Positions 1 to 434 of a stretch of 434 bases of DNA are shown one piece after another. The notes under the pieces are model-generated. The model saw nothing but the letters and a program-made list of their open reading frames with translations, did not search any database and was not told where the DNA came from. The position numbers were made by a program, and so were the translations under genes. How positions within the stretch are numbered: the first letter of the stretch is position 1; every line of letters starts with the position of its first letter. Origin of the DNA: Escherichia coli (GTDB lineage Bacteria > Pseudomonadota > Gammaproteobacteria > Enterobacterales > Enterobacteriaceae). The stretch lies in the NCBI RefSeq assembly GCF_003334355.1, contig NZ_QOWP01000107.1. One strand, written 5' to 3'.

Positions 1-41
1 TCAAAAACATCGCATTTAACTATATTGTGAGGCTTGCATAA
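1..41 (+). CDS. 3' end of an upstream gene (partial, 5' end outside window), probably the side tail fibre gene that normally precedes tfa; codons begin at nt 3 and translate ...[12 protein letters not shown]
   Basis: Seen in sequence: the frame beginning at nt 3 is the only + frame open from the window start to the tfa start (the other two + frames stop at 17-19 TAA and 28-30 TGA). It ends at TAA 39-41, sharing one base with ATG 41-43. Established knowledge: tail fibre genes in lambdoid, Mu and P2-like phages sit directly upstream of their assembly chaperone, often with overlapping stop and start. Only 13 codons are visible, so the product identity is inferred. Confidence 0.45.
27..32 (+). 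promoter_or_regulatory. Shine-Dalgarno / ribosome-binding site for the tfa-like CDS (GTGAGG, core GAGG at 29-32)
   Basis: Seen in sequence: the purine-rich GAGG motif ends 8 nt before ATG 41, a typical spacing for enterobacterial translation initiation. It lies inside the last codons of the upstream ORF, consistent with translational coupling. Confidence 0.5.
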
Positions 42-434
42 TGGCATTCAGAATGAGTGAACAACCACGGACCATAAAAATTTATAATCTGCTGGCCGGA
101 ACTAATGAATTTATTGGTGAAGGTGACGCATATATTCCGCCTCATACAGGTCTGCCAGCAAACAGTACCGATATTGCACCGCCAGATATTCCGGCAGGCT
201 TCGTGGCTGTTTTCAACAGTGATGAGGCATCGTGGCATCTCGTTGAAGATCATCGGGGAAAAACCGTCTATGACGTGGCTTCCGGCGACGCGTTATTTAT
301 TTCTGAACTCGGTCCGTTACCGGAAAATGTTACCTGGTTATCGCCGGGAGGGGAATATCAGAAGTGGAACGGCACAGCCTGGGTGAAGGATACGGAAGCA
401 GAAAAACTGTTCCGGATCCGGGAGGCGGAAGAAA
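41..434 (+). CDS. tfa: Phage tail fibre assembly protein (Tfa family chaperone), N-terminal 131 codons; 3' end runs past the window edge
   Basis: Seen in sequence: ATG at 41 is followed by 131 sense codons with no stop up to the window end (last full codon 431-433), with an SD upstream and enterobacterial-style codon usage. Established knowledge: the translation matches, from memory, the N-terminus of E. coli prophage tail fibre assembly proteins (TfaE/TfaR/TfaQ-like), which share their conserved part with lambda Tfa, Mu U and P2 G. These paralogs are nearly identical, so I cannot say which one this is; the symbol is generic. No search was run. Confidence 0.9.

Follow-up and report, generated by a model that had tools for sequence, protein, structure and literature searches.

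The side tail fibre gene stf and the tail fibre assembly gene tfa together form a textbook host-range module that lambdoid, P1-like, P2-like, Mu-like and T4-like phages exchange with one another, and they are at the same time a textbook case of recombination between phages and defective prophages. [quoted passage not shown] The side fibres of Ur-lambda bind OmpC (PMC12617516). For the Tfa protein of phage Mu, PMC9608196 describes a non-conserved N-terminal domain that binds the distal fibre and a conserved C-terminal helical domain that is proposed to trimerise. In T4, gp38 serves as the chaperone of the long tail fibre protein gp37, and lambda Tfa is able to replace it (PMC9659904 citing Montag et al. 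1989). According to published work, the chaperone remains on the mature fibre in Ur-lambda and Mu, whereas T4 gp38 is not found in the mature virion (PMC9608196).

Here we analyse a stretch of 434 nt, called the window below, in which, with high confidence, we recognise the Rac allele of the junction between the two genes of a lambdoid prophage's side-tail-fibre cassette, with bases 41-434 making up codons 1-131 of a tfa gene of 191 codons. The gene is an already known and ordinary tail fibre assembly gene of the Rac-prophage/lambda type. As a preliminary description of this DNA had anticipated, its relevance is a matter of annotation accuracy and hygiene only, since everything from the gene and its family to the genomic context and the mosaic distribution is known already; nothing is added to the established picture of stf-tfa exchange.

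Over its full 434 nt, the window is 100% identical to many E. coli chromosomes, in which it covers the end of stfR (or of a tail fibre pseudogene) and the start of an annotated tfaR gene. It is matched at 99% identity or more by 360 records, and a related copy is present in 4442 of 5426 complete genomes, at a median of 2 and a maximum of 7 places per genome. The counterpart in K-12, TfaR of the Rac prophage (b1373), also has 191 aa, occupies the same locus, is identical in its C-terminal 60 residues and shares its neighbours with the allele described here (stfR upstream; pinR, ynaE/ydfK, uspF and ompN downstream). It differs within the window by 10 nt and 4 aa (A63S, D83N, G103E, Y106F), the allele here being WP_000885599.1, and MG1655 can therefore be discounted as the origin of the window.

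The window is also 98.2% identical to phage lambda 21933-22366 (stf/tfa), with 426 of the 434 nt the same. Window base 41 corresponds to lambda 21973, the annotated start of orf-194/tfa, while orf-314, which is the 3' part of stf, has its end in window 3-41; tfa follows stf directly with the same TAATG and GAGG in both. The Tfa residues encoded in the window agree with those of lambda at 130 of 131 positions, the sole difference being V97F (valine here, phenylalanine in lambda). Unlike the protein described here, lambda Tfa has 194 rather than 191 aa, the part past the window being 90% identical, and downstream of tfa lambda carries ea47, whereas the chromosomal Rac copy is followed by pinR.

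The stf-tfa junction and its coding frame

The window opens on the 3' end of stf/stfR, the last 12 codons and the stop TAA (39-41) of which occupy 3..41 (+), as seen from the translation and from the annotation of lambda orf-314/stf and E. coli stfR. This stop overlaps the start of tfa in a TAATG at 39..43 (+), and in lambda, K-12 and other relatives the annotated fibre CDS likewise ends on the starting base of tfa. A GAGG at 29..32 (+), 8 nt before ATG 41, resembles a Shine-Dalgarno element and may act as one; a single lambda-derived record (lambda imm21/imm434) annotates a ribosome_binding_site under the window match. The junction gtgaggct(t/g)gcataATG is conserved in eight of nine relatives, and the C-terminal Stf peptide ahead of tfa is identical in eight of the nine. 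Judging from this arrangement, translation of stf and tfa is probably coupled through the TAATG overlap and the upstream GAGG. A scan of the window for promoters and terminators stayed at chance level: it found no terminator and a single promoter-like site, on the minus strand, where 0.6 were expected.

The tfa CDS (41..434 (+)) begins with ATG 41-43 and is free of stops up to base 434, which gives 131 codons in 41-433 and one base of codon 132. No start is possible before ATG 41, as there is an in-frame TAA upstream at 17-19 and no ATG, GTG or TTG in the codons at 20-40. This is the sole long open frame on the plus strand of the 434-base window. A stretch of at least 131 codons that is open in some frame was seen in 61 of 5000 mononucleotide shuffles of the window, and the length of the open frame by itself is only moderate evidence for a gene. 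We regard homology and the substitution pattern as decisive.

The 131-aa product matches the Pfam family Caudo_TAP (PF02413) with E 4.7e-8, residues 72-130 aligning to positions 1-69 of the 131-position model from nt 254 onwards, and it matches PHROG 105, 'tail fiber assembly', with E 1.6e-66. In the exact-match genomes the CDS has 576 nt, and the resulting 191-aa protein matches PF02413 with E 1.9e-42 over model positions 1-130 of 131; NCBIfam gave no match, whether searched with 131 or with all 191 aa. Among 1.84 billion cluster representatives, the 131-aa query found 1745 relatives at E<=1e-3, many of them proteins of 190-200 aa with 35-55% identity. The length is in line with that of the family (~175-205 aa; 191 aa here, 191-205 aa in relatives and 175 aa in Mu gpU), and so is the position directly downstream of the fibre gene on the same strand, which is shared by lambda, K-12, and the P1-like and P2-like relatives.

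The nine relatives used for the coding comparison belong to lambdoid, P1-like or P2-like phages or to Gifsy prophages of Salmonella, and range from 98% to ~66% nt identity. Over codons 1-131, and where dS is unsaturated, dN/dS lies between 0.05 and 0.19. The differences among the nine are concentrated at third codon positions of the tfa frame; 6 of the 7 differences within the CDS relative to lambda, and 6 of the 10 relative to K-12, are synonymous changes at third positions. The N-terminus M(A/T)F(R/K)MS is kept in all nine. As read from these comparisons, the substitution pattern shows that purifying selection acts in the tfa frame.

These results bear out the preliminary description in several respects. 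It had placed the real CDS at ATG 41 with the frame still open at 434, and the 131 stop-free codons, the homology and the substitution pattern agree with that; it had named the product as a phage tail fibre assembly chaperone, which is what both the PF02413 and the PHROG 105 matches indicate; and its estimate of a full length of roughly 190-200 aa proved accurate, as extension in the 3' direction in the exact-match genomes reaches a stop after 191 codons. Similarity to Tfa proteins is evident in Pfam and PHROG as well as in the tfaR genes of E. coli and lambda tfa. Past the window the frame continues in the exact-match genomes, with neither an early stop nor a frameshift, into the conserved C-terminal region, as seen in the full-length PF02413 match and in a match of residues 127-191 to Mu gpU.

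Overlapping frames and the Rfam IS009 match

The list of ORFs supplied with the window was made by a program that reports complete ORFs only; it found four of at least 20 aa in the window, of which two have at least 60 aa. The preliminary description had pointed out that only two ORFs were listed and that both lie in other frames, and this holds at the threshold of 60 aa: one is a 93-aa ORF at 105..386 (+), in the +1 frame relative to tfa, the other a 77-aa ORF antisense to tfa at 20..253 (-). The tfa CDS is missing from the list because the lister leaves out ORFs that run off the end of the sequence. For annotation, this means that a list of complete ORFs can hide a CDS cut by the window edge while showing two spurious ones.

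It might be argued that one of these two ORFs is the real gene and that the long open frame is incidental; both are complete and start with ATG, and 105..386 (+) is free of stops in seven of the nine relatives. We consider this extremely improbable. At 66-73% nt identity, the amino acid identity of 105..386 (+) is only 31-48%, against 68-76% in the tfa frame; there are three stops in each of two P2-like relatives, and its start codon is changed from ATG to ACG in Gifsy-1 and Gifsy-2. Its ATG is an out-of-frame reading of AAT-GAA (Asn22-Glu23 of Tfa), and in 7% of synonymous re-draws of the Tfa codons this frame stays open by chance. The antisense ORF at 20..253 (-) carries one or two stops in eight of the nine relatives, and its amino acid identity is 29-60% in the diverged relatives. 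Neither ORF is annotated in any record examined (lambda, two exact-match genomes, K-12). As genes, both are effectively refuted by the stops and the loss of amino acid identity in relatives.

The other feature that overlaps tfa is a match to the Rfam family IS009 (RF02111), which reportedly goes back to the E. coli sRNA prediction study of Chen et al. in 2002. Inside the tfa frame, window 384-434 (+) aligns to positions 1-51 of the 199-position model with 41.8 bits and E 1.9e-8. This score is under the gathering score of 117 because the match is cut by the end of the window; the extended gene matches all 199 nt and reaches 220.9 bits. Full 199-nt matches of 218-228 bits are present in tfaR, in lambda tfa and in the tfaD gene of K-12 (DLP12), on the coding strand of tfa (L002 6384-6582, L004 4755-4953, L001 3384-3582 and L012 9857-10055).

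Taken at face value, these scores, with the first 51 model positions falling in the window, would favour a dual function, in which 384-434 is part of a genuine IS009 sRNA gene that overlaps the 3' part of the tfa mRNA or is processed from it. The 199-nt stretch does fold somewhat better than shuffles (z = -2.3), which again would favour an sRNA, but the predicted minimum free energy structure differs from the Rfam consensus. Every full match that we examined lies wholly inside the tfa CDS, on its coding strand and in its 3' third. When the consensus structure was evaluated on the nine diverged tfa genes only, 79.2% of cells could pair, compared with 76.4% in column shuffles; pairs with changes on both sides numbered three among these nine sequences, a value reached by 65 of 500 shuffles, and many pairs are broken in three to six of the nine. 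Covariation among these genes is thus not convincing. Where columns are conserved, they correspond to codons that are conserved in Tfa (LQDA, WKKYRV).

We therefore believe that the dual-function reading is very unlikely, and that the IS009 conservation is best explained by the conserved C-terminal domain of Tfa; from these comparisons it looks like coding sequence rather than structured RNA. The related idea that the 3' third of tfa, which begins with the 51 nt at window 384-434, also yields a stable structured RNA processed from the stf-tfa mRNA is very unlikely indeed. If it were true, an E. coli genome would have several copies of such an RNA, tfa being carried on many prophages, and the RNA could act as a regulator in its own right. 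With the coding interpretation, the practical consequence is a different one, namely that an Rfam-based pipeline would call the 3' part of tfa the ncRNA 'IS009'.

Domain architecture and the fibre client

An AlphaFold2 model of the protein, computed from a 59-sequence alignment that was taken from the representative search, has a mean pLDDT of 95; it consists of an all-beta domain (strands within 10-116) followed by a helical hairpin (118-152 and 158-176). With an alignment of only 10 sequences, the pLDDT of the N-terminal domain was below 50 and the AlphaFold2 model unusable. By the model from 59 sequences, the window encodes the whole N-terminal beta domain together with 14 residues at the start of the C-terminal one.

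Residues 1-54 (41..202 (+)) make up the N-terminal part of the beta domain, as delimited by the model (pLDDT 95), by conserved columns and by alignments; they comprise a predicted hairpin at 10-32 and a near-invariant loop at 37-48. They have no counterpart in Mu gpU, whereas residues 11-54 can be aligned with T4 gp38. The core beta unit, residues 55-117 (203..391 (+)), is defined by the Pfam match, the model and the alignment with Mu gpU, in which it corresponds to residues 27-~105; its pattern is VAVF..W..EDHRG..VY..G..GPLP..T..P..W.G..WV, and W65, G91, P102, W109 and W114 are invariant across the 59 homologues. Residues 118-131 (392..434 (+)) are the start of helix 1 of the C-terminal helical hairpin, according to the model and the match to Mu gpU; in the full-length protein of the exact-match genomes the C-terminal region is predicted as a helical hairpin with a pLDDT above 90.

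Sequence and profile searches of the PDB gave just one match, Mu gpU/Tfa (5YVQ chain B), and only for residues 123-191; residues 127-191 match 5YVQ_B with E 3.1e-8, and profile searches give 3.8e-14 and 2.4e-14. A comparison of profiles with hhalign extends the relationship to residues 55-191, aligned with Mu 27-175 at a probability of 98.7%, which agrees with the range of 62-192 reported from HHpred for lambda Tfa (PMC7291167). In addition to this profile homology and the clear conservation of the C-terminal helical domain, Mu resembles our locus in that gpU is encoded directly after its fibre gene, and PMC9608196 indicates the same two-domain logic. It differs in that the likeness of the N-terminal domain escapes both HMMER and Foldseek; when the complete model was compared with known folds, nothing informative came up for the beta domain.

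The relationship to T4 concerns the very domain that the window encodes: a tblastn match to gp38 covers residues 11-131 with 34% identity (E 1e-9). The client fibre tips are homologous as well, as the C-terminal 250 aa of StfR from the exact-match genome L003 match the gp37 tip of T4 (2XGF_A) with E 6.9e-86. By these sequence matches, Tfa belongs to the lambda Tfa / T4 gp38 subtype, the chaperones of gp37-type fibre tips. The tfaR copy here belongs to a temperate lambdoid prophage, whereas T4 is a virulent myovirus. Across lambdoid, P1-like and P2-like phages, tfa travels with the part of the fibre gene that encodes the last ~230 aa. As the fold searches were uninformative, the proposed binding of the fibre by the N-terminal domain rests on the hhalign alignment, the homology to T4 gp38 and this co-inheritance with the fibre tip.

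By transfer from the homologues of lambda, Mu and T4 to the Rac/lambda-type allele, we suggest the following chaperone mechanism. Tfa would be translated just after Stf, probably in the coupled manner outlined for the junction above. Its variable N-terminal beta domain, which takes up most of the window, would then bind the C-terminal receptor-binding region of the Stf chains, a gp37-type tip, while the conserved C-terminal helical domain (from residue 118) would oligomerise and thereby hold three chains in register, so that the fibre tip can trimerise and fold.

Some relatives depart from the usual architecture. In P0011 (356 aa) and P0013 (652 aa), a core unit of ~55-60 aa occurs in tandem, with four and eight matched stretches, respectively, and is followed by one normal C-terminal helical domain; the pattern of the unit is PP..G...VF......W...EDHRG..VY....G....I..LGPLP...T, and the window protein has it once (about residues 44-102) and then a half unit. 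We know of no chaperone for which a fibre-binding domain expanded by repeats in this way has been described. Two further proteins are fusions: in P0002 (686 aa) Tfa is joined in frame to the C-terminal part of gpJ, and in P0004 (443 aa) it is joined to a fibre whose junction is altered (...SSKGRV|MAFRMSEQ). Such fusions may have arisen by deletion within prophage tail regions, or they may be artefacts of gene calling.

Rac prophage context, use of the gene and mosaicism

In two exact-match genomes, the gene order around the window is (gpJ-lom-)stfR-tfaR-pinR-ydfK-ynaM ... uspF-ompN. The annotation of K-12 MG1655 has this order at the right end of its Rac prophage. The serine invertase gene pinR lies 98 nt downstream of tfaR in convergent orientation (L003 6714-7304 (-); L004 5085-5675 (-)), a placement that resembles that of the invertase genes beside the invertible fibre/tfa segment of Mu. 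In Mu the gpU gene lies in the invertible G segment together with an alternative S'/U' pair; at the Rac locus no invertible segment was found. The search for inverted repeats between stfR and pinR returned just one weak pair of 21 nt with 76% identity (L003 4156-4176 / 6548-6568), and there is no obvious invertible segment or alternative fibre/tfa pair.

The location in Rac raises the question of whether the gene is still in use. The prophage is annotated as cryptic in K-12, where only lomR', stfR and tfaR are left of the tail genes, and in the exact-match genome L002 the fibre gene upstream of tfaR is a pseudogene, interrupted by a stop and lacking its N-terminus. The copy in the window may, given these two observations, never be used, and it is possible, if on balance doubtful, that tfa is a functionless relic, intact in sequence but residing in a decayed, cryptic Rac that builds no fibre. 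The frame would then persist because there has been too little time for decay, or because active phages restore it when they recombine with the prophage. Lambda is known to recombine with exactly the stf-tfa region of Rac (PMC3945230), and a copy of this kind would, even as a relic, act at least as a sequence reservoir.

Another exact-match genome, L003, argues against a relic, as it carries gpJ, lom and a full-length stfR of 1132 aa directly upstream. The tfa frame is, moreover, intact in all copies examined, at a dN/dS of 0.05-0.19 relative to K-12 and lambda. A relic would in any case concern the current use of the gene rather than the encoded product, and is not in conflict with the identification as tfa, the reading that we keep and that no observation made here speaks against.

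The similarity of relatives to the window at the DNA level breaks off at differing internal points; some phages share just the 5' half, as in Gifsy-2, which matches window 3-195 only, and others just the final ~85 nt, as in phage 2B8, which matches window 351-434 only. Break points as varied as these are the mosaic pattern expected of a recombination-prone cassette, and the one towards the 3' end is near the domain boundary at residue 118.

The surroundings of tfa differ in some of the relatives. In Gifsy-1, an ORF with a Macro domain (L010 688-1512) separates tfa from the side tail fibre gene; the last 11 nt of this ORF are shared with the start of tfa, and it replaces both the usual C-terminus of the fibre and the TAATG junction. 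In the P1-like phage Ro157c2YLVW (L005 2161-2733 (-)) and in phage 613R2 (L006 2120-2683 (-)), the next gene after tfa is on the other strand and encodes a serine O-acetyltransferase; in 613R2, where the 3' end of tfa is extended, the two genes overlap by 37 nt.

Two minor observations concern database records and the wider neighbourhood. MW057783.1, deposited as 'Campylobacter phage CJLB-4' (48,361 bp), matches the window with 98.2% identity at 21853-22286, coordinates that are near those in lambda (48,502 bp); to judge from the 434-nt match only, this record looks like a lambda genome under another name, through contamination or mislabelling. Finally, a match to the sRNA MicC (L002 10757-10877 (+); 125 bits, gathering score 90) lies beyond the end of the prophage and is unrelated to tfa; it falls into the ompN-nifJ/ydbK intergenic region, which we take to be the usual site of MicC.
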